Below, one piece after another: positions 1,242 through 11,446 of a stretch of DNA of 26,357 bases. Location: IMG/VR virus record IMGVR_UViG_2541047815_000002, positions 1 to 26,357 of that record, one strand, 5' to 3'. A program made the position numbers and the translations under genes. Origin of the DNA: a virus. Lineage: Duplodnaviria; Heunggongvirae; Uroviricota; Caudoviricetes. The stretch's first letter is position 1. Each line of letters opens with the position of its first letter. The notes under the pieces are model-generated. The model did not search any database. It was not told where the DNA came from and saw only the letters and a list, made by a program, of their open reading frames with translations.

Positions 1242-1433
1242 TTATCGTGAGTTTTTAGTACAGATTTTTTTGGATTTACTAATAGTTCCATCATTGCAAA
1301 CGAATTTGCCATCAGAGGTACAGTGAGAAACACCTCCCTTTTTCCCTGAGCAGGGATAATTTCTAGCATAGGTAGCTAGTGGGTTTAATAACAAAGAACA
1401 TGACAAAACCACAAAAAATACCTTACCAAGCAT
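1242..1433 (-). CDS. Small secreted cysteine-rich peptide (63 aa precursor), function unknown
   Basis: ATG at 1431-1433 with GGGAGA 7 nt upstream. N-terminal hydrophobic signal-like segment [23 protein letters not shown] with an AxA-like cleavage context, then a Lys-rich roughly 40-aa part with four Cys. Lies in a visibly AT-rich stretch between the cI stop and the int start, on the same strand as both. Confidence 0.4.
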
Positions 1434-2042: not shown

Positions 2043-2071
2043 TTGACGATTTCACCGTGCGATCGTATGTT
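2043..2071 (+). promoter_or_regulatory. Candidate lytic promoter pR (-35 TTGACG, 17-bp spacer, -10 TATGTT)
   Basis: TTGACG at 2043-2048 and TATGTT at 2066-2071 with a 17-nt spacer, in the divergent cI/apl intergenic region, oriented toward apl-cII-A. Confidence 0.45.
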
Positions 2072-2914: not shown

Positions 2915-3115
2915 ATGCTGACGAAAGAACCATCATTTGCATCGCTGCTGGTTAAACAAAGCCCGGCAATGCATTACGGTCACGGCTGGATCATGGGGGA
3001 GGATGGTAAACGCTGGCATCCGTGCCGTTCACAAGATGAATTGCTGGCAGAACTATCTACGAAAAAACGGGGGAACAAATGGCTATTGAAGGCACTGCGG
3101 CGACTGTTCCATTAA
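2915..3115 (+). CDS. Hypothetical small early protein (fil-like position after cII)
   Basis: ATG at 2915 preceded by GAGGTG, which overlaps the cII stop. 66-aa basic protein. Identity not recognised. Confidence 0.45.
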   Translation: MLTKEPSFASLLVKQSPAMHYGHGWIMGEDGKRWHPCRSQDELLAELSTKKRGNKWLLKALRRLFH

Positions 3116-3420
3116 GCCCCGGTGAACGCCTGAATGGACTTAATCACATTGCGGAGTTAAGGGCGAAAGTTTTTGGCCTGAATATTGAGTCAGAGCTTGA
3201 GCGGTTTATTAAAGATATGCGTGATTCACGGGATATTAATAGCGAACAAAATAAACGGGCACTGGCTGCCATATTCTTTATGGCAAAAATTCCAGCTGAA
3301 CGTCATAGCATCAGCATTAATGAGCTGACCACTGACGAAAAGCGGGAGTTGATTAAAGCAATGAATCATTTTCGTGCAGTGGTGAGCTTATTTCCCAGAC
3401 GGCTAACCATGCCGAATTAA
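3079..3420 (+). CDS. Hypothetical early protein (113 aa)
   Basis: ATG at 3079 with GGGGA upstream, in the early operon. No recognisable motif. Confidence 0.5.
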   Translation: MAIEGTAATVPLSPGERLNGLNHIAELRAKVFGLNIESELERFIKDMRDSRDINSEQNKRALAAIFFMAKIPAERHSISINELTTDEKRELIKAMNHFRAVVSLFPRRLTMPN

Positions 3421-3487: not shown

Positions 3488-3721
3488 ATGCGTAATATTG
3501 AAACCCTCTCGACCAAAACCGGACCGGATGACGCAGGGCTTAATATTTTACTGACAGAGGCTCGTCTGGAAGAACGCCGGGCAAGGGCTGAAGCAATGGC
3601 AGCTCGCCTTGATAGCCTGGCGTGTCATATCACATCCCGCCAGCTAACCCACGTCGAAGCGGCAGAACTGCTTCGTGTGACTGCTGAAGCAATCCAGAAC
3701 GAAGCGCAGGAGATCCACTAA
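3488..3721 (+). CDS. Hypothetical early protein (77 aa)
   Basis: ATG at 3488 with CAGGAGA upstream. Stop TAA overlaps the next start (TAATG). Confidence 0.5.
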   Translation: MRNIETLSTKTGPDDAGLNILLTEARLEERRARAEAMAARLDSLACHITSRQLTHVEAAELLRVTAEAIQNEAQEIH

Positions 3722-3948
3722 TGGCTGATGCAATGGATCTCGTACAGCAGCGCGTTGAAGAAGAACGCCAACGCCATATCCGTGCTGCCCGTGCCAAAAC
3801 GCCGGGCGTGTCCCGCGTGCTTTGCATTGAGTGTGAAGCGCCAATTCCGCCAGCACGCCGCCGTGCCATTCCGGGTGTGCAGCTTTGCATTACCTGTCAG
3901 GAAATCGCAGAGCTGAAAGGCAAACATTACAACGGAGGTGCTGTATGA
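3721..3948 (+). CDS. TraR/DksA-family C4 zinc-finger protein
   Basis: 75-aa protein with CxxC-(17 aa)-CxxC (CIECEAPIPPARRRAIPGVQLCITCQ), typical of phage TraR/DksA-like zinc fingers. Stop overlaps the Dam start (ATGA). Confidence 0.75.
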   Translation: MADAMDLVQQRVEEERQRHIRAARAKTPGVSRVLCIECEAPIPPARRRAIPGVQLCITCQEIAELKGKHYNGGAV

Positions 3949-4802
3949 GCACCATCCTGAAATGGGCGGGAAATAAAACTGCCATAATGTCCGAACTAAA
4001 AAAACATCTTCCTGCTGGCCCGCGACTGGTTGAACCTTTCGCGGGTTCCTGTGCTGTGATGATGGAGACGGATTATCCCAGCTATCTGGTTGCGGATATT
4101 AATCCTGATTTAATCAACCTTTATAAAAAGGTTGCCGCTGATTGTGAATCGTTTATATCTCGCGCCAGAGTTTTATTTGAGATCGCAAACAGGGAGGTGG
4201 CTTATTACAACATAAGGCAGGAGTTTAATTACTCAACTGAAATTACTGATTTCATGAAAGCGGTATATTTCCTGTATCTCAATCGTCACGGTTACCGTGG
4301 TTTATGTCGCTATAACAAGAGCGGGCATTTCAACATTCCCTACGGTAATTATAAAAATCCGTATTTCCCTGAAAAAGAAATTCGCGCATTTGCAGAAAAG
4401 GCCCAGCGAGCAACGTTTATCTGCGCCAGCTTTGATGAAACGCTGGCGATGTTGAAGGCGGGGGATGTGGTGTATTGCGATCCGCCGTATGACGGTACGT
4501 TTTCCGGCTATCACACTGACGGCTTCACTGAAGATGACCAGTATCACCTGGCATCTGTTCTTGAACATCGGTCATCAGAAGGACATCCGGTCATTGTTTC
4601 TAACAGTGACACATCCCTGATCCGTTCGCTGTATCGCAATTTTACTCACCACTACATCAAGGCAAAACGCAGCATCGGTGTGGCAGCTGGCGAGGGTAAA
4701 TCAGCAACAGAAATCATTGCTGTTTCCGGGCCGCGCTGCTGGGTGGGATTTGATTATTCGCGTGGCGTGGATAGTTCTGCCGTGTACGGAGTACGTGCAT
4801 GA
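3945..4802 (+). CDS. dam: Dam-type DNA N6-adenine methyltransferase (orphan, no cognate nuclease seen)
   Basis: ATG at 3945 with GGAGG upstream. N-terminal SAM-binding motif (KWAGNK ... EPFAGS) and the catalytic DPPY tetrapeptide at 4479-4490. Translationally coupled to gene A (ATGA overlap at 4799-4802). Confidence 0.85.
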
Positions 4803-7213
4803 GTCATGCCGATATGAACAACTGCTGCGGCTTTAACGAAGCTGCCGCATCGTTCTCATGGAACAGCTCGAAAAAGGCCATTAACCCTTATCTGGACCCG
4901 GTGGAAGTTGCGCCGGTTTCTACGCTTTCAAACCTGATCACTCTGTACGCTGCCGATAACGAGCAGGAACAGCTGCGCCGTGAGGCGCTGAGTGATCAGG
5001 TCTGGGAGCGTTATTTCTTTAATGAATCCCGTGATCCTGTCCAGCGCGAAATGGAACAGGATAAGCTCATTAGTCGGGCAAAGCTGGCGCATGAGCAGCA
5101 GCGTTTTAATCCGGATATGGTCATTCTGGCGGACGTCAACGCCCAGCCTTCCCATATCAGCAAGCCGCTGATGCAACGTATTGAATACTTCAGCAGCCTG
5201 GGCAGGCCAAAGGCTTATTCCCGCTATTTACGTGAGACGATTAAGCCATGTCTGGAACGACTGGAGCATGTACGCGACAGTCAGCTATCTGCATCTTTTC
5301 GCTTTATGGCAAGCCATGAAGGGCTGGACGGCCTGCTGATCCTGCCTGAAATGAGTCAGGATCAGGTGAAACGCCTGTCCACCCTGGTAGCTGCGCATAT
5401 GAGTATGTGCCTTGATGCCGCTTGTGGCGATTTGTATGCCACCGATGACGTTAAGCCAGAAGAAATCCGCAATACATGGGAAAGGGTGGCAGCGGAAACC
5501 CTGCGTCTGGATGTCATCCCGCCTGCGTTTGAGCAACTCCGTCGGAAAAGAAACCGCCGTAAACCCGTGCCCTATGAACTCATTCCGGGTTCGCTGGCGC
5601 GTATGTTGTGCGCCGACTGGTGGTATCGGAAATTATGGAAGATGCGTTGCGAATGGCGGGAAGAGCAGTTGCGTGCTGTCTGCCTTGTCAGCAAAAAAGC
5701 ATCTCCCTATGTCAGCTATGAAGCCGTGTTGCATAAACGTGAGCAGCGCCGTAAGTCGCTGGAGTTTTTCCGTTCTCATGAACTGGTGAACGAAGACGGC
5801 GACACGCTGGACATGGAGGATGTGGTAAACGCCAGCAGCAGCAACCCTGCGCATCGCCGCAATGAGATGATGGCCTGTGTTAAAGGTCTGGAGCTTATCG
5901 CGGAAATGCGCGGTGACTGCGCCGTTTTCTACACCATCACCTGTCCGTCACGTTTCCATTCCACGCTAAATAACGGCAGGCCCAACCCAACCTGGACAAA
6001 TGCGACGGTAAGACAAAGCAGTGATTATCTGGTCGGCATGTTTGCTGCATTTCGTAAGGCGATGCACAAAGCCGGATTGCGGTGGTATGGCGTGCGGGTG
6101 GCTGAGCCGCATCATGACGGTACAGTTCACTGGCACCTGTTGTGTTTTATGCGCAAAAAAGACCGCCGCACCATCACTGCATTACTGCGTAAGTTTGCCA
6201 TCCGTGAAGACCGCGAGGAGCTGGGCAATAACACTGGGCCGCGCTTTAAGTCTGAGTTGATTAACCCGCGCAAAGGTACGCCAACAAGCTACATCGCGAA
6301 ATACATCAGTAAGAACATTGACGGGCGTGGTCTGGCTGGCGAGATCAGCAAGGAAACGGGGAAATCCCTGCGTGATAATGCTGAATACGTTAATGCCTGG
6401 GCGTCTCTGCATCGTGTTCAGCAATTCCGCTTCTTTGGCATTCCGGGGCGTCAGGCTTACCGTGAACTGCGATTGCTGGCTGGTCAGGCGGCAAGGCAAC
6501 AGGGGGACAAAAAAGCAGGTGCGCCGGTACTGGATAACCCGCGCCTTGATGCCATTCTGGCTGCTGCTGATGCTGGTTGTTTTGCCACCTACATCATGAA
6601 GCAGGGTGGCGTACTGGTTCCCCGCAAATATCACCTCATCAGAACTGCTTATGAAATCAACGAAGAGCCGACCGCCTATGGCGATCACGGCATTCGTATT
6701 TATGGCATCTGGTCACCTATTGCAGAGGGCAAGATCTGCACTCATGCCGTGAAGTGGAAAATGGTTCGTAAGGCCGTTGACGTTCAGGAGGCGGCAGCCG
6801 ACCAGGGCGCTTGCGCCCCTTGGACTCGTGGCAATAACTGTCCCCTTGCTGAAAATTTGTACCAACAAGGGAAAGACAAATCAGCTGATGGGGATACCAG
6901 AACGGATATCACCCGTATGGATGACAAGGAGTTGCACGATTACCTGCACAGTATGAACAAAAAAGAACGCCGGGAACTGGCTGCAAGGTTACGCCTGGTG
7001 AAACCGAAACGGCGTAGAGACTACAAACAGCGAATTACAGACCATCAACGACAGCAGCTCGTCTATGAACTGAAGTCCAGAGGATTTGATGGCAGCGAGA
7101 AAGAGGTCGATTTACTCCTTCGCGGCGGCAGTATTCCGTCAGGAGCAGGCCTGCGTATCTTCTATCGGAACCAGCGTTTGCAGGAAGATGATAAGTGGCG
7201 GGATCTGTATTAA
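4799..7213 (+). CDS. A: Rolling-circle replication initiator (P2 gpA family endonuclease)
   Basis: 804-aa protein. HUH-type motif HWH at 6128-6136 and paired active-site tyrosines YIAKY at 6290-6304, as in P2 A and phiX174 A. Lies in the expected position after the early genes. Confidence 0.9.
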
Positions 7214-7305
7214 TTACGCGGGTTAACAATTCGTGCTCTTAATAATACCAGGCATATCAGGCTGATGAACGTAAAAAAACGTTTTACATCAGTAAGATTA
7301 TTATA

Positions 7306-7325
7306 TACTGTAAATATAAACAGTG
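7306..7325. promoter_or_regulatory. LexA (SOS) box TACTGTAAATATAAACAGTG
   Basis: Near-consensus CTGT-N8-ACAG operator (consensus TACTGTATATATATACAGTA) about 40 bp upstream of the 7367 start. A TTTACA -35-like hexamer sits at 7283-7288. Confidence 0.6.
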
Positions 7326-7366: not shown

Positions 7367-7555
7367 ATGCAGGACTATTTTTTGGAGTCTTTGAAGCTCC
7401 AGCGCATTGATTTTTTTCTTAAGCTTGTAGCGGCTAGTGAGTGTAGTGATGAAGAGAAGGGGCTGGCTCTGCAGTGGGTTTCTGAATTGACTGATGAACT
7501 CATGGCAAAAATCAGAAGCCACGAATACAACCGCTCAATGGATGTCATCAGCTGA
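7367..7555 (+). CDS. Small acidic protein downstream of LexA box (candidate Tum-like antirepressor component)
   Basis: ATG at 7367 with AGGAGG 4 nt upstream. 62 aa. Functional call is by position and the LexA box only. Confidence 0.4.
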   Translation: MQDYFLESLKLQRIDFFLKLVAASECSDEEKGLALQWVSELTDELMAKIRSHEYNRSMDVIS

Positions 7556-7565
7556 GGTGACTTTT

Positions 7566-7799
7566 ATGCGCATTGAAATAATGATCGATAAAGAGCAGAA
7601 AATTAGCCAGTCTACCCTGGACGCCCTTGAATCCGAGCTTTACCGCAATCTGCGCCCCCTGTATCCCAAAACGGTAATTCGTATCCGCAAAGGTAGCTCT
7701 AACGGTGTGGAACTGACCGGACTGCAACTGGACGAAGAAAGAAAACAAGTGATGAAAATTATGCAGAAGGTGTGGGAAGACGACAGCTGGCTGCATTAA
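7566..7799 (+). CDS. DinI-family protein
   Basis: 77-aa protein beginning MRIEIMIDKEQ..., with an acidic C-terminus typical of DinI-like proteins. GAGGTGA RBS. Follows the LexA-boxed small gene. Confidence 0.75.
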   Translation: MRIEIMIDKEQKISQSTLDALESELYRNLRPLYPKTVIRIRKGSSNGVELTGLQLDEERKQVMKIMQKVWEDDSWLH

Positions 7800-8304: not shown

Positions 8305-9423
8305 ATGTATCTTTTCAAGTATTACCGTCCGGACTTCTTCTTCGAGAAAGCTATTCGTTATAATGAATTATATTTTTCCGCTCCTGCGCAATTGAATGAT
8401 CCTAATGATCTCAATATAGATTATCGTTTTGATAATAAATTGAAATTATGGGATATTTTATTGCGTTCTCCTTGCGATAAATCCTATGAAAATTTGAGTC
8501 ACATATTAGATTTGAGTAATTTGAAGATACATAAGGGATTGAATCGTATTTTTAGAGGAAAAAAAATAAAAAGTAGCATTGAGTCATTAGATAGCCTGTT
8601 TGACTCACACGTTGATGAGATACGTAAGATCATAAATGATGGTTTACTACCTATCAATGTGATTAATTCCGCTATTTATGGGAATATTCCTGAACCACGC
8701 CAATTTTTGGTCTCACTTTGCGAGAACAGTATCAAAGAAAGGTTGTATAGGAAAATAGTTCCTGCAGTATTCAGTGTGTCATTTTCAGCTAATGCGTTAG
8801 ATCGTATGATGTGGGCGCATTATGCTGCAGGCTTTAGTGGTTGTGTTGTGATTTATGAAACGCAGGATTTTAATATTAATGGCGTGCCACATCCTGGAAT
8901 GAAGCTAAGAGAAAATTTATTTTCATCAGATAAATTTAATTTTCCAGTTAAGCAAATAAAATATAGTAATCAGGCTAAAGAGGTTTCACTTCTAGACCCA
9001 AGCGCAAATGTTGCAGAGTTATTTTTAACTAAAAATAGATTTTGGAGATATGAAGCTGAATATCGAATGTTTATTCCAGAGGCAAATGCAGGAATAGGGA
9101 GTGAGCGGCATGTTCAAAGACGCGTAAATCGAAATATTGGACATATTTTTCATCATGATGCTAATGTTGTTAAAGGGATCATTTTTGGTCCTAGAATGTG
9201 TGAAATGAAAAAAGAAAGCATATGGAATTGTATCAAGTCAAATATGGAGAATTCAAATTCAACAATATGTTATTTTTTTGACTCTGAGTTATCAGCATCA
9301 GGAAAGATTACTATTTCAAAAGGGCAACGAGCGGAAAAAATGAAAAATTTCCCTTTGTTCAGGAACAAGTTAAGTCAGACGGAAATGGCTAAAGTTTTGA
9401 AGGAAATTGGCATTACGAACTAA
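8305..9423 (+). CDS. DUF2971-like protein (372 aa), accessory cargo gene, candidate anti-phage/abortive-infection factor
   Basis: Lies in a strongly AT-rich island (by eye) that contrasts with the phage backbone. From memory it resembles the DUF2971 pattern: N-terminal LFKYYR ... LYFSAPAQLNDPND, then MWAHYA and RYEAEYRMF. It occupies the tin/old-equivalent hotspot downstream of A. Confidence 0.6.
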   Translation: MYLFKYYRPDFFFEKAIRYNELYFSAPAQLNDPNDLNIDYRFDNKLKLWDILLRSPCDKSYENLSHILDLSNLKIHKGLNRIFRGKKIKSSIESLDSLFDSHVDEIRKIINDGLLPINVINSAIYGNIPEPRQFLVSLCENSIKERLYRKIVPAVFSVSFSANALDRMMWAHYAAGFSGCVVIYETQDFNINGVPHPGMKLRENLFSSDKFNFPVKQIKYSNQAKEVSLLDPSANVAELFLTKNRFWRYEAEYRMFIPEANAGIGSERHVQRRVNRNIGHIFHHDANVVKGIIFGPRMCEMKKESIWNCIKSNMENSNSTICYFFDSELSASGKITISKGQRAEKMKNFPLFRNKLSQTEMAKVLKEIGITN

Positions 9424-9488
9424 CCTAACAACAGTGCATGCCTATGCTGCCTGAATTTGCATGACCGTTTGAGGATCGTTTTTGCTAA

Positions 9489-9513
9489 GGCCCGCCAGAA
9501 CTGGCGGGCTTTT
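9489..9513 (+). terminator. Rho-independent terminator after the 372-aa cargo gene
   Basis: GC-rich hairpin (GGCCCGCCA / loop GAAC / TGGCGGGCT) followed by a TTTT run. Confidence 0.5.
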
Positions 9514-9558
9514 GCGTGGATCAGGCACCTGCATGAAAACCACTACACAAAGCGGGCA

Positions 9559-9577
9559 GGCGTGGCGGGGATACGAG
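9559..9577. other. Candidate cos (cohesive-end) core
   Basis: GGCGTGGCGGGGA matches the first 13 nt of the 186/P2 19-nt cohesive end as I recall it (GGCGTGGCGGGGAAAGCAT / GGCGAGGCGGGGAAAGCAC). It sits in a short GC-rich patch inside the AT-rich island. The distal 6 nt differ from memory, so this is uncertain. Confidence 0.35.
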
Positions 9578-9679
9578 CGCGCGCTAACTCATAAATCCTA
9601 GATTATTAGTGGATTTATCTCATTGAAATGTGCACTATTCCCAGCATTGAGTTGTACCAGATGTCTTTATGGAGGGACT

Positions 9680-11446
9680 GTGGCTTTTGTAACTGATATT
9701 CGGCTTGAAGATAATGCTATTGCTGCACCTGCGACAGCACAGGTTATGGCTCAGAGGCTAGGATCTGTATTACGTAAGAGATATGAAGAATTCATCCATA
9801 AAAGAGAGTGTGCACCAGGCCAAGCAGACTATGATGTAAAAATGGCTAGCAGGGCTTTAGCTGCATTCACTATGTATCAGTTAGGATGTGTGGATGATAA
9901 GTATGCAGGGGAGTCTGTATGTGATAGTAGTGAAGATGGTGGTATAGATGGAATAGCAATCAACCATAACGAAAAAATCGTTGTTGTTGTTCAATCAAAA
10001 TTTCACCAATCGGGAAACGGCACTTGGACAAGAGCCGATTTTATGTGTTTTAAGGATGCTTGTGAGAAGCTACAAAGTGAAAGATACGAATTATTTGATT
10101 CCATATTGCAAAATAAAAGCGGGGAAATAAGTGCGGCTTTAAGTAGTTTTGAATACAAGTTCATCTTTGCGATGGCGCATACAGGTAAAAAAGGTGCTGC
10201 AGAGGAAATATTAAATGATATGCGGGAATGGCAATATCAATTAAACGCTGCAGCTTTTACACCTGAGGATGAGCCTAAAGAGAACTGGGGATTTCAGGTT
10301 CATTTAATATCCTCTGAAGATATGATGCATTGGTTACAGAATGGCTCTCGAAATCAAATTGATCTTAACAGGGTTGAAATTGAGCGTTTTGGATTTTTGA
10401 ATGAACCATATCAAGCTTTTTACGGGGCTATTAGTGGTGATCAAGTTGCAGAATGGTGGGAAGAGCATGGTGCTCGATTATTTACAAAAAACATAAGGAA
10501 TATGCTTGGTAAAACAGAAGTGAATGAGGAAATAAAAAAGACAGCTATAGATAATCCTGATATGTTTTGGTTTTATAATAATGGGATTACTGTACTGGTT
10601 AAGGAAGTTGTTCCTCATAGACGAAACGCAGCTCCTAATATAGAGAGAGGGATTTTTGATTTTCGTGATGTAAGTGTCATTAATGGTGCACAAACAGTCA
10701 GTAGTATTGGCGCATGTAAAGATGCGCTTGGTGAAAACATATATAGACTCAAAGTGCCAGCTAGATTCATTGTTATAGATGATGATACTGATAATTTAAC
10801 TGCAAATGCAATTACAAAAGCTAACAATTTCCAAAATAGAGTATTGGGAAGAGATTTTGCATCGCAGCAGGCAGATCAACATAGATTGGCAAGGGAGTTA
10901 GTGCTTGAAGGATATCAATATCAGTTACTAAGAACAGATGAAGATCATTCACAGACAAATACGAAAGTCATTGACTTGGATGAGGCGCTCAATGCACTCG
11001 CATGTTTAAGTAAAAATAATACGGTTGTATCGACACTAAAATCAAATCGCGGTAGGTTTTTTGAAAATTTTGAAGGCTCTCTATATAAAACTATTTTCAA
11101 TCCAAGATTAAGTGGTTTAAAACTTATCAATACTGTTCTACATTTTAGAGTTATAGATAAGTTGATCGGTAAAACATTACTATCAGTAGATAAAACGACC
11201 CATAGTCGCAAGCATTTAATTATTACGCATGGTAATAGATACTATGCGTCTGTACTATTGAGCAACGTTTCTGGGATACATAATAGCTCAGAAATTCTTG
11301 TTCCAGATGAAAAAAATCTTTCCGAAGAATTAAGTGCATTAATTCAACGTGCTGAAGAGTACATTGAAGATAATTACCCGAATGCCTATCCGGCAAGATT
11401 TTTTGCAAATCCAACGAAAATACAAGAGTTATACGATAATGTTTAA
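9680..11446 (+). CDS. AIPR-like (abortive infection phage resistance family) protein with putative N-terminal PD-(D/E)xK-like motif
   Basis: Long ORF in AT-rich DNA. Start is uncertain: TTG at 9623, GTG at 9680 with GGAGGG upstream, or ATG at 9746. Motifs DGGIDGI ... VVVVQSK (D...QxK, nuclease-like) and NNGIT ... INGAQT, which I associate with the AIPR family. Followed immediately by a strong terminator. Confidence 0.55.
   Translation: MAFVTDIRLEDNAIAAPATAQVMAQRLGSVLRKRYEEFIHKRECAPGQADYDVKMASRALAAFTMYQLGCVDDKYAGESVCDSSEDGGIDGIAINHNEKIVVVVQSKFHQSGNGTWTRADFMCFKDACEKLQSERYELFDSILQNKSGEISAALSSFEYKFIFAMAHTGKKGAAEEILNDMREWQYQLNAAAFTPEDEPKENWGFQVHLISSEDMMHWLQNGSRNQIDLNRVEIERFGFLNEPYQAFYGAISGDQVAEWWEEHGARLFTKNIRNMLGKTEVNEEIKKTAIDNPDMFWFYNNGITVLVKEVVPHRRNAAPNIERGIFDFRDVSVINGAQTVSSIGACKDALGENIYRLKVPARFIVIDDDTDNLTANAITKANNFQNRVLGRDFASQQADQHRLARELVLEGYQYQLLRTDEDHSQTNTKVIDLDEALNALACLSKNNTVVSTLKSNRGRFFENFEGSLYKTIFNPRLSGLKLINTVLHFRVIDKLIGKTLLSVDKTTHSRKHLIITHGNRYYASVLLSNVSGIHNSSEILVPDEKNLSEELSALIQRAEEYIEDNYPNAYPARFFANPTKIQELYDNV

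Follow-up and report, generated by a model that had tools for sequence, protein, structure and literature searches.

What a phage gains from a DNA adenine methyltransferase of its own, encoded directly in front of its replication initiator gene, is the question raised by the locus described here, since the Escherichia coli host already has Dam and methylates GATC. The stretch of DNA analysed, 26,357 nt in length and referred to as the window, contains such a gene between a TraR-like gene and gene A. For phages whose hosts have Dam already, the function of a further copy is regarded as still unsettled (PMC7556043).

Genome context of the TraR-Dam region

The window was a 186-like (Peduoviridae) prophage of E. 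coli, with the region sharing 97.5% DNA identity with 186/P2-type Klebsiella phages (e.g. KP12 and H13) and 99.9% with E. coli prophages. The early lytic operon had the order cI on the minus strand and apl-cII-fil-...-DUF2732-TraR-...-A on the plus strand, followed by P2-type late genes. The DUF2732 gene (nt 3488–3721, plus strand), identified by PF10809 (E = 1e-28), phrog_128 and the annotation of relatives, is a homologue of P2 Orf80 and of the DUF2732 gene of phage 186. Gene A (nt 4799–7213, plus strand) encoded a replication initiator of 804 aa, a rolling-circle nicking endonuclease (PF05840 Phage_GPA, E = 3e-127; phrog_91). Placement of the methylase in the replication operon, as claimed in the sequence-only reading, was borne out. 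The operon also carried homologues of 186 fil and dhr, which block cell division and host replication, respectively. In the cargo region after A were a DUF2971 gene and an AIPR/AbiU-like gene; a near-identical annotated E. coli prophage, which matched the whole window, possessed standard 186/P2 genes together with genes for a DUF2971 and an AIPR protein.

Of 5426 complete E. coli genomes, 1244 had the TraR-Dam module, and its annotation is routine. TraR and Dam just before A are an ordinary, long-known accessory gene pair of 186/P2-type prophages, already known as such. That the module is common and had been described was missed in the sequence-only reading.

TraR-family protein

The gene at nt 3721–3948 (plus strand) encoded a TraR/DksA-family C4 zinc-finger protein of 75 aa, confirming its initial designation as a TraR/DksA zinc-finger gene: it scored above cutoff with both PF01258 zf-dskA_traR (E = 3e-11; 43.5 bits, cutoff 24.9) and the TIGR02419 TraR family (65.8 bits, cutoff 59.7), and belonged to phrog_54. 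The PDB TraR structures 5w1s and 6n57 matched the protein with E of about 3e-9. It shared 68% identity with the 186 homologue, 46% with P2 Orf82 and 39% with F TraR, and residues D3, D6, C35, C38, C56 and C59 were invariant across these proteins. In the N-terminal DxxDxA motif, which the family needs for function, D3 and D6 were kept, and position 8 was V instead of A.

P2 Orf82 has been shown biochemically to bind RNA polymerase, to compete with DksA and to inhibit rrnB P1; together with four other homologues it binds RNA polymerase and inhibits rRNA promoters without ppGpp (PMC9239242). A8 is missing from P2 Orf82 as well, and this protein is active in vitro, but more weakly (PMC9239242). 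The window protein resembles P2 Orf82, lambda Orf73 and F-plasmid TraR in size, in the C4 zinc finger and in the N-terminal D3 and D6, and its operon position equals that of P2 Orf82. It departs from the motif by V8, and its function is predicted from homology. The RNA polymerase secondary channel is its predicted binding target.

Dam-family methyltransferase

The gene at nt 3945–4802 (plus strand) encoded a Dam-family (alpha group, D12 class) N6-adenine DNA methyltransferase of 285 aa, with GATC as the predicted target. The protein matched PF02086 (E = 1e-76; 258.5 bits, cutoff 22) and TIGR00571 dam (321.9 bits, cutoff 114.85), and its DPPY motif occupied residues 179–182 (nt 4479–4490), in agreement with the adenine methyltransferase initially recognised by this motif. 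TTG at nt 3885, the start of the program-predicted ORF (nt 3885–4802), was rejected in favour of ATG at nt 3945, because the gene is 858 nt long in annotated relatives, alignment with E. coli Dam (EcoDam) begins at residue 4, and GGAGG lies 7 nt upstream of this ATG.

Motif I, the recognition hairpin (residues 114–136) and DPPY followed one another in the order of the Dam family, which is shared with the chromosomal Dam of E. coli (PDB 2G1P; 47.5% identity over 257 aligned residues, E = 2e-73). F32-x-G34 of the AdoMet-binding motif I and D51, the acidic residue after strand 2, aligned with EcoDam F35, G37 and D54, and the second glycine of FxGxG was C36; like DPPY, these positions did not vary among 66 homologues. 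The roles of the EcoDam recognition and catalytic residues were taken from PMC4417163. Six of the seven GATC-recognition residues (K9, Y119, N120, L122, R124, P134 and Y138) were identical, as was DPPY, the exception being N120, replaced by R118 both here and in every one of the 66 homologues. Since two EcoDam DNA-contact residues differ in the window protein (N120 to R and R137 to N), an altered flanking preference is possible. Specificity for GATC, with m6A as the product, is nevertheless predicted, given the strong homology, the conservation of recognition residues and 98% identity to a protein that takes its name from the retron-Ec67 Dam.

Among the 66 homologues, the catalytic and recognition residues were essentially invariant, and dN/dS was 0.145 for dam and 0.089 for A. 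Judged by this ratio, dam is under purifying selection; dN/dS and motif conservation together ruled out a reading of dam as a pseudogene or pure spacer. The protein scored 288.1 bits with the host-Dam equivalog NF008152, missing its cutoff of 441, which indicates a prophage-borne Dam-family paralogue and not the host dam gene. It differs from the chromosomal enzyme in possessing a 22-aa C-terminal tail and, by analogy with phage 186, its gene is presumably kept off by CI in lysogens. No restriction endonuclease was found in the window, either in the neighbours TraR and A or among all genes of the near-identical annotated prophage, and the best PADLOC model was "orphan methyltransferase"; the view that the enzyme is an orphan with no restriction partner was thus upheld.

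Related phage-borne Dam proteins

The 98%-identical protein is named "retron EC67 DNA adenine methylase", and both proteins are of 285 aa. Its gene lies in the order DUF2732-TraR-Dam-A in a 186-like prophage, as here. The retron-Ec67 element (retronphage phiR67), whose Dam methylase is M.Eco67Dam (P21311), differs in its cargo region after A, which contains the retron in place of the DUF2971 and AIPR/AbiU-like genes. Dam methylase function was reportedly found for this element by Hsu, Inouye and Inouye in 1990 (PNAS 87:9454), and Dodd and Egan are said to have shown in 1996 that it is a 186-related prophage.

Salmonella phage SopEPhi and Fels-2-type phages (Felsduovirus) such as SEN8 had the same early operon. 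SopEPhi has orf7 (TraR-like), orf8 and orf9 (A) in the same order as the window, with orf8 annotated as "similar to retron EC67 DNA adenine methylase". SEN8 encodes a Dam 73% identical to that of the window and differs in two respects: its TraR and Dam genes are separated by an additional 3'-5' exonuclease gene, and its overlap with A is 10 nt long and involves a GTG start. For M.EcoMIV, a prophage Dam homologue in E. coli EC958, transcription is reported to be absent in the lysogen (PMC4659465); its gene was not found in two 50-kb stretches of the EC958 chromosome. Papers on the global diversity of P2-like viruses and on phages of E. coli HS contained nothing on the TraR-Dam module.

Gene junctions

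As read from the sequence, stop and start codons overlapped at three successive junctions: TAATG at nt 3719–3723 (DUF2732/TraR), ATGA at nt 3945–3948 (TraR/Dam) and ATGA at nt 4799–4802 (Dam/A), the last being retained in 45 of 60 loci scored for the Dam/A junction. Coupling of the methylase to both TraR and A had been proposed at the outset; the ATGA overlaps on both sides stand as observed, and translational coupling of TraR, Dam and A is what we infer from them.

A hairpin at nt 3934–3957 (plus strand; MFE -14.3 kcal/mol) would pair the dam Shine-Dalgarno sequence (GGAGGUGCU) with dam codons 2–4, leaving the AUG of dam in the loop and enclosing the TraR stop codon. Its z score was -3.17, and none of 200 shuffled sequences was as stable. 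Among the relatives, RNAalifold returned neither a consensus structure nor compensatory pairs, and shuffled alignments performed equally; support for the hairpin is the thermodynamic signal in the window sequence alone.

According to the GenBank record of phage 186, ribosomes appear to have to translate the upstream orf84 to its end for A to be translated, and an untranslated A is subject to the terminator tM1 in its early part. Coupling of A to the gene upstream thus has an experimental precedent. In the window, too, A had terminator-like hairpins within its first 130 nt. The place immediately in front of A, taken by Dam in the window, is occupied in 186 by orf84 (PAPS-reductase-like), also with an ATGA overlap, and in P2 by Orf83 (DUF5405), with a longer overlap. 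Both proteins are unrelated to the window Dam, and translational coupling to A is reported for orf84 in 186.

Variable slot between TraR and A

In the relatives, Dam was found upstream of A in 66 of 77 loci. Other genes occupying this slot encoded Dcm-like, DpdA-like (phrog_887) and PAPS-reductase-like proteins, an exonuclease and an ASCH protein, and TraR was present in all loci having upstream sequence. Eight close relatives had nothing between TraR and A, TraR abutting A directly, and in one close relative dam was frameshifted. As phage 186 itself also has no dam, the gene is dispensable. Dam is an optional cassette, the slot being held by other modification genes in some relatives and some having no Dam. 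The position upstream of A has the appearance of a swap site for DNA-modification cassettes.

Early promoter, GATC sites and origin

A putative early lytic promoter, pR, was located by a consensus scan at nt 2043–2071 (plus strand), in a position relative to cI and apl as in the annotated pR of 186. It consisted of a -35 TTGACG, a 17-nt spacer and a -10 TATGTT, and the operon with TraR, Dam and A would be transcribed from it. A GATC was present at nt 2061–2064 (-17 to -14), one base before the -10. The arrangement TTGAC[AG]-N12-GATC-N-TAnnnT was found in 12 of 15 promoter types, among which the other spacer and flank bases varied; information content was 1.3–1.6 bits at the GATC columns and at most 0.9 bits at the other spacer columns. 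Most relatives have a conserved GATC next to the early-promoter -10, and the spacer of P2 Pe has one as well, overlapping operator O1. The element was absent from 186, SEN5 and ST16-OXA48phi5.4, and SopEPhi, differing from the window in this respect, has GATT. Since it was equally frequent in relatives lacking Dam, the element is independent of the phage enzyme. Excision of SopEPhi is favoured by Dam methylation (PMC7380047); with GATT at its pR, this site is ruled out as the cause.

Over the whole 26-kb window 96 GATC sites were counted, evenly spread, with an observed/expected ratio of 0.80 (Markov), in the middle of the range for 4-base palindromes; window counts compared with the Markov expectation gave no signal of GATC avoidance or enrichment. 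The probable replication origin (nick region) inside A, located at nt 6803–6845 (plus strand) by similarity to the nick sites annotated in P2 and in 186, contained no GATC, the nearest being at nt 6733 and 6683.

Proposed role and alternatives

The most likely mechanism, to which we assign a probability of roughly 0.6, is early lytic co-expression of a TraR that reprograms host transcription with additional capacity for GATC methylation that is linked to replication of the phage. As in phage 186, transcription of the operon would start at pR once CI repression is lifted. As inferred from the tested homologues, TraR would act at the RNA polymerase secondary channel without ppGpp, lowering the activity of rRNA and ribosomal-protein promoters and raising that of amino-acid promoters, and would in this way divert host resources in lytic growth. 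The window Dam is predicted to form m6A at GATC. Given the ATGA overlaps to TraR and A and a ribosome binding site within a hairpin, it is probably made in step with A, and would add GATC methylation just when copying of phage DNA outpaces the scarce host Dam. Because the host is already Dam-positive, the phage enzyme adds capacity and no new mark, and its benefit must be quantitative. Progeny genomes may thus leave fully methylated at GATC, which would protect them in the next host against methylation-sensitive enzymes that cut at GATC-containing sites; intermediates in the hemimethylated or unmethylated state may likewise escape MutH and SeqA. The two functions put forward with caution in the sequence-only reading, protection from restriction and an influence on the host in the lytic cycle, are both compatible with these observations; protection from restriction is the one favoured by the other DNA-modification genes found in the slot of relatives.

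Those same slot genes bear on an unlikely alternative in which the main target of Dam is the host chromosome. Excess Dam would remove the hemimethylated interval on which SeqA depends for oriC sequestration and MutH for mismatch repair, and would alter Dam-sensitive host promoters, so that, with TraR, host physiology is reshaped for the phage. Co-expression of Dam with TraR and with fil and dhr homologues suggests an operon rich in host-directed functions, and a gain for phage DNA is not obvious when host GATC is already methylated; however, the slot also accommodates enzymes directed at the genome of the phage itself (such as the DpdA-like transglycosylase and the Dcm-like methylase), and with TraR in all loci having upstream sequence and Dam in 66/77, pairing of the two is not obligate. 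An explanation resting on the gene position itself, in which selection acts chiefly on a translated ORF ending at the start of A and methylase activity is secondary, appears improbable, the least so favoured of those considered here. Such an ORF would deliver ribosomes to A and avoid premature termination inside it, as is consistent with the 186 record on orf84 translation and tM1, the terminator-like hairpins early in the window A, and the unrelated genes found at this position in different phages. The constraint on dam (dN/dS 0.145, against 0.089 for A) and the near-invariance of its catalytic and recognition residues in the 66 homologues argue for selection on the enzyme, and no extra gene is needed in the eight relatives in which TraR itself abuts A.

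The conserved GATC of the pR spacer opens a further possibility, somewhat more doubtful than the host-directed one, that phage and host Dam together set its methylation and thereby tune apl, cII and the replication genes. Parental (fully methylated) and newly replicated (hemi- or unmethylated) templates would be read differently at pR, and Dam, being encoded by the pR operon, would reset the methylation state of its own promoter. The position of the site at -17 to -14, its recurrence in 12/15 promoter types, the high information content of its columns and the GATC in the P2 Pe spacer speak for such control, yet the element is as frequent in Dam-less relatives, is missing from 186, SEN5 and ST16-OXA48phi5.4 and reads GATT in SopEPhi, and its sharing may stem from common ancestry of the promoters. 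A related reading, in which the position just upstream of A is a dedicated plug-in site for interchangeable modification cassettes, is, like this epigenetic loop, held with about as little confidence as action on the host chromosome. The cassettes (Dam, Dcm-like, DpdA-like and PAPS-reductase-like) would be bounded by a shared SD-stop-start junction (GGAGGTGCTGTATGA), and this junction would both couple translation and provide microhomology for cassette exchange.

Compared with these alternatives, added methylation capacity in step with phage replication is the reading we prefer. The significance of the locus is limited in that the module is standard and widely annotated, with the methylase described in 1990 and a TraR relative characterised in 2022. 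As part of a very common E. coli prophage, it offers a convenient system for testing the role of Dam in phages of Dam-positive hosts. The modification slot and the conserved promoter GATC raise testable questions on how modification is linked to replication and to the lytic switch in temperate phages.

The TraR-Dam-A module and its genomic setting

The window covered the left-hand two thirds of a Peduoviridae prophage of the 186 type. Gene assignments were based on profile matches and on annotated, near-identical E. coli prophages that lie beside rcdA. Genes for an integrase (nt 1–1053) and the CI repressor (nt 1449–2018) were assigned to the minus strand, and the plus strand encoded an Apl/Cox-like excisionase (nt 2144–2365), CII (nt 2398–2907), Fil (nt 2915–3115), a DUF5347 protein (nt 3079–3420), a DUF2732 protein (nt 3488–3721), a TraR-like protein (nt 3721–3948), Dam (nt 3945–4802) and the replication initiator A (nt 4799–7213). 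The last three are named by PGAP 'TraR/DksA family transcriptional regulator', 'DNA adenine methylase' and 'replication endonuclease', respectively. A was followed by a DinI/Tum-like operon under LexA control, then by two cargo genes of low G+C content and the late genes of P2 type. A 1.7-kb stretch around TraR and Dam was 99.9% identical to many E. coli chromosomes: of the 5426 complete E. coli genomes, 1244 gave some match and 1225 matched it at a coverage of 80% or more. A group of temperate phages of Klebsiella matched this stretch with 97% identity.

In the gap separating the integrase gene from cI, a 36% G+C stretch contained a 63-aa ORF (nt 1242–1433, minus strand; 'hypothetical' in relatives) with a hydrophobic, signal-peptide-like N-terminus, which may be a moron expressed in lysogeny. 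A perfect LexA box, CTGTAAATATAAACAG, was observed at nt 7308–7323, overlapping the -10 of a promoter-like site (TTTACA ... TATACT, nt 7282–7325) that precedes a small ORF and a DinI/Tum-like gene (nt 7367–7799); this arrangement matched that of p95-tum, an antirepressor operon which in phage 186 is under SOS control. The cargo (nt 8305–11,446; 36.5% G+C), with the replication genes on one side and the portal gene on the other, encoded an AIPR/AbiU-like (Abi alpha-like) protein and a DUF2971 protein, the latter matching the candidate defence family PDC-S31. These genes probably serve in anti-phage defence, and their site is that of retron Ec67 and of P2 old/tin in other phages.

Identity of the methylase and the TraR-like protein

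The methyltransferase with a DPPY motif recognized in the sequence-only reading was confirmed by matches to PF02086 (E = 1e-76) and to the Dam model TIGR00571 (322 bits). Its orphan status was upheld, the top PADLOC model being 'orphan methyltransferase', and no restriction partner was present among the other genes of the window, which were standard phage genes plus the two cargo genes (DUF2971 and AIPR). The first in-frame start codon of the ORF was a TTG at nt 3885; the ATG at nt 3945 was taken as the real start because relatives are annotated at 858 nt, the alignment with the E. coli chromosomal Dam (EcoDam) begins at residue 4, and a GGAGG lies 7 nt upstream. The protein shared 47.5% identity with EcoDam (PDB 2G1P), and its DPPY motif occupied residues 179–182, encoded by GATCCGCCGTAT (nt 4479–4490), which opens with a GATC. 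The residues with which EcoDam reads GATC (K9, Y119, L122, R124, P134 and Y138; PMC4417163) were all identical in the window Dam, whereas N120 was replaced by R and the phosphate contact R137 by N. Among 66 Dam homologues from related phage contigs (60% to 100% identity), the GATC-reading residues and DPPY were invariant or nearly so. Median pairwise dN/dS was 0.145 for Dam, 0.106 for TraR and 0.089 for A; the value for Dam, together with the conserved residues, therefore indicates purifying selection on the methylase.

The upstream gene encoded a 75-aa protein scoring above the cutoffs of PF01258 and TIGR02419 and matching F-plasmid TraR in PDB, in agreement with its earlier designation as a TraR-like zinc-finger gene. 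Identities of 68%, 46% and 39% were shared with the phage 186 homologue (marked 'not essential' in the phage 186 record), P2 Orf82 and F TraR, respectively. Five homologues, P2 Orf82 among them, occupy the DksA site on RNA polymerase, can substitute for a deleted dksA and need no ppGpp to inhibit rrnB P1, and lambda Orf73 requires D3 and D6 of the DxxDxA motif (PMC9239242). The window protein possessed D3, D6 and the four cysteines, with V at position 8; P2 Orf82, which likewise lacks A8, is a weaker inhibitor (PMC9239242).

More than 1000 contigs encoded the exact window Dam protein. One member of its 90% cluster (98% identity, same gene context) bears the name 'retron EC67 DNA adenine methylase', and Salmonella phage SopEPhi, sequenced in 2003, has the same TraR-Dam-A order, annotated in these terms; the module was therefore already known. 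The retron name traces to Hsu, Inouye and Inouye in 1990, whose title assigns the function of a Dam methylase to the 34-kb Ec67 element; Dodd and Egan showed in 1996 that this element is a 186-related prophage. TraR-Dam-A is a well-known, widely annotated module, which the sequence-only reading placed at the right coordinates, observed and interpreted correctly.

Gene junctions and translational coupling

Overlapping stop and start codons were read at the DUF2732/TraR (TAATG), TraR/Dam (ATGA) and Dam/A (ATGA) junctions. The 4-nt Dam/A overlap was found in 45 of the 60 related loci with Dam directly before A, and the TraR/Dam ATGA in 52 related loci. As to the claim that dam is coupled to both neighbours, the overlaps on its two sides were verified; coupling itself would follow from the architecture and, at the Dam/A junction, from a precedent in phage 186, whose record indicates that A appears to be translated only when translation runs to the end of the preceding gene, and that a terminator early in A is active when A is untranslated. 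On these grounds, coupling of TraR, Dam and A appears well supported. Two hairpins were also observed within the first 130 nt of A (nt 4823–4849 and 4898–4930, the second followed by a T-rich run), at a position similar to that of the tM1 terminator annotated in phage 186.

The Shine-Dalgarno sequence of dam was predicted to pair with codons 2–4, leaving the AUG in the loop (-14.3 kcal/mol, z -3.2, none of 200 shuffles as stable). Judged solely by thermodynamics, such pairing would make dam translation depend on ribosomes completing TraR; no compensatory changes for this hairpin were found in relatives.

The variable slot upstream of A

The gene content of the traR-A interval was classified in 80 viral contigs with an A protein at least 78% identical. 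Among the 77 loci with upstream sequence, 66 carried Dam, TraR directly adjoined A in eight, and dam was frameshifted in one (L043). The frameshift in this close relative (A 95% identical) leaves dam (nt 5148–6004 of L043) as two ORFs, 169 and 117 aa long, of which the latter still ends at the start of A; here the methylase has been lost naturally. The interval in related loci may also hold a 3′-5′ exonuclease or a DUF3850/ASCH protein, and in some relatives it contained a PAPS-reductase-like protein (186 itself included), a Dcm-like cytosine methylase, or a phrog_887 protein ('queuine tRNA-ribosyltransferase', of the DpdA-like transglycosylase type). In the more distant Peduoviridae SEN5 and ST16-OXA48phi5.4, the arrangements were Dam-Dcm-A and exonuclease-small ORF-Dam-A, respectively, with Dam proteins sharing only about 41% identity with the window Dam, whereas P2 has only Orf83 (DUF5405) at this position.

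A 15-nt junction, GGAGGTGCTGTATGA, encoding the C-terminal residues GGAV, the stop, a Shine-Dalgarno sequence and the next start, was common to several cassette borders (TraR/Dam, TraR/ASCH and ASCH/Dam), and near-variants of it occurred in 186, SEN8 and P2. The G+C content was 46.6% for Dam, 56.6% for TraR and 53.0% for A. Taken together, the slot contents, the shared junctions and the G+C content of Dam indicate that dam is a cassette, optional and exchangeable, and that its slot, which is expressed with A, collects DNA-modification functions by preference.

A GATC in the putative early promoter

A putative early lytic promoter, designated pR after that annotated in phage 186, was observed at nt 2043–2071 (TTGACG-17 nt-TATGTT), with a GATC at nt 2061–2064, one base before the -10. 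Promoters of related contigs, anchored on the -35 and -10 hexamers only, fell into 15 types whose variable parts shared less than 60% identity. The pattern TTGAC[AG]-N12-GATC-N-TAnnnT was present in 12 of these types, the GATC columns (spacer positions -17 to -14) carrying 1.3–1.6 bits and the rest of the spacer no more than 0.9 bits per column; nothing on this conserved GATC was found in the literature searched. In P2 Pe the spacer GATC lies 3 nt further upstream and overlaps operator O1, and among the promoters compared those of 186, SEN5 and ST16-OXA48phi5.4 had no GATC at the pR position. Excision of SopEPhi is reportedly favoured by Dam (PMC7380047), but its pR position carries GATT, ruling out this element as the explanation. 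A pR with GATC is possibly a Dam-sensitive lytic promoter, a lead rather than a result.

Possible role of Dam

By analogy with 186, the operon would be transcribed from pR only in lytic growth; no other plus-strand promoter-like site was seen between pR and A in the window. The TraR-like protein would reprogram host RNA polymerase, and during A-driven rolling-circle replication Dam would add to the capacity for GATC methylation. The genomes of the progeny would thus be fully methylated at GATC, which is proposed to protect them from methylation-sensitive restriction at GATC-containing sites, and would escape MutH and SeqA, whose substrates are hemimethylated or unmethylated GATC sites. That Dam may act in this way on the phage's own DNA is supported by the slot content in relatives. 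Against a strong requirement for it are the Dam already present in the host, the ordinary GATC frequency in the window and the natural Dam-less relatives.

Host takeover, with Dam acting beside a TraR-like protein predicted to target RNA polymerase, is a rather unlikely alternative, given a slot content that points to phage DNA. Self-regulation through the promoter is unlikely as well; it would draw on the recurrent pR GATC, yet this element was alike in Dam-plus and Dam-less phages, and its conservation may instead stem from shared promoter ancestry. That dam might be a mere translational coupler is very improbable, an idea weakened by the purifying selection on the catalytic residues. Action on phage DNA is the most likely role. 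An epigenetic loop between phage Dam and the pR GATC, with the position upstream of A serving as a slot dedicated to DNA-modification cassettes, is itself rather doubtful, and would be of moderate interest if true.
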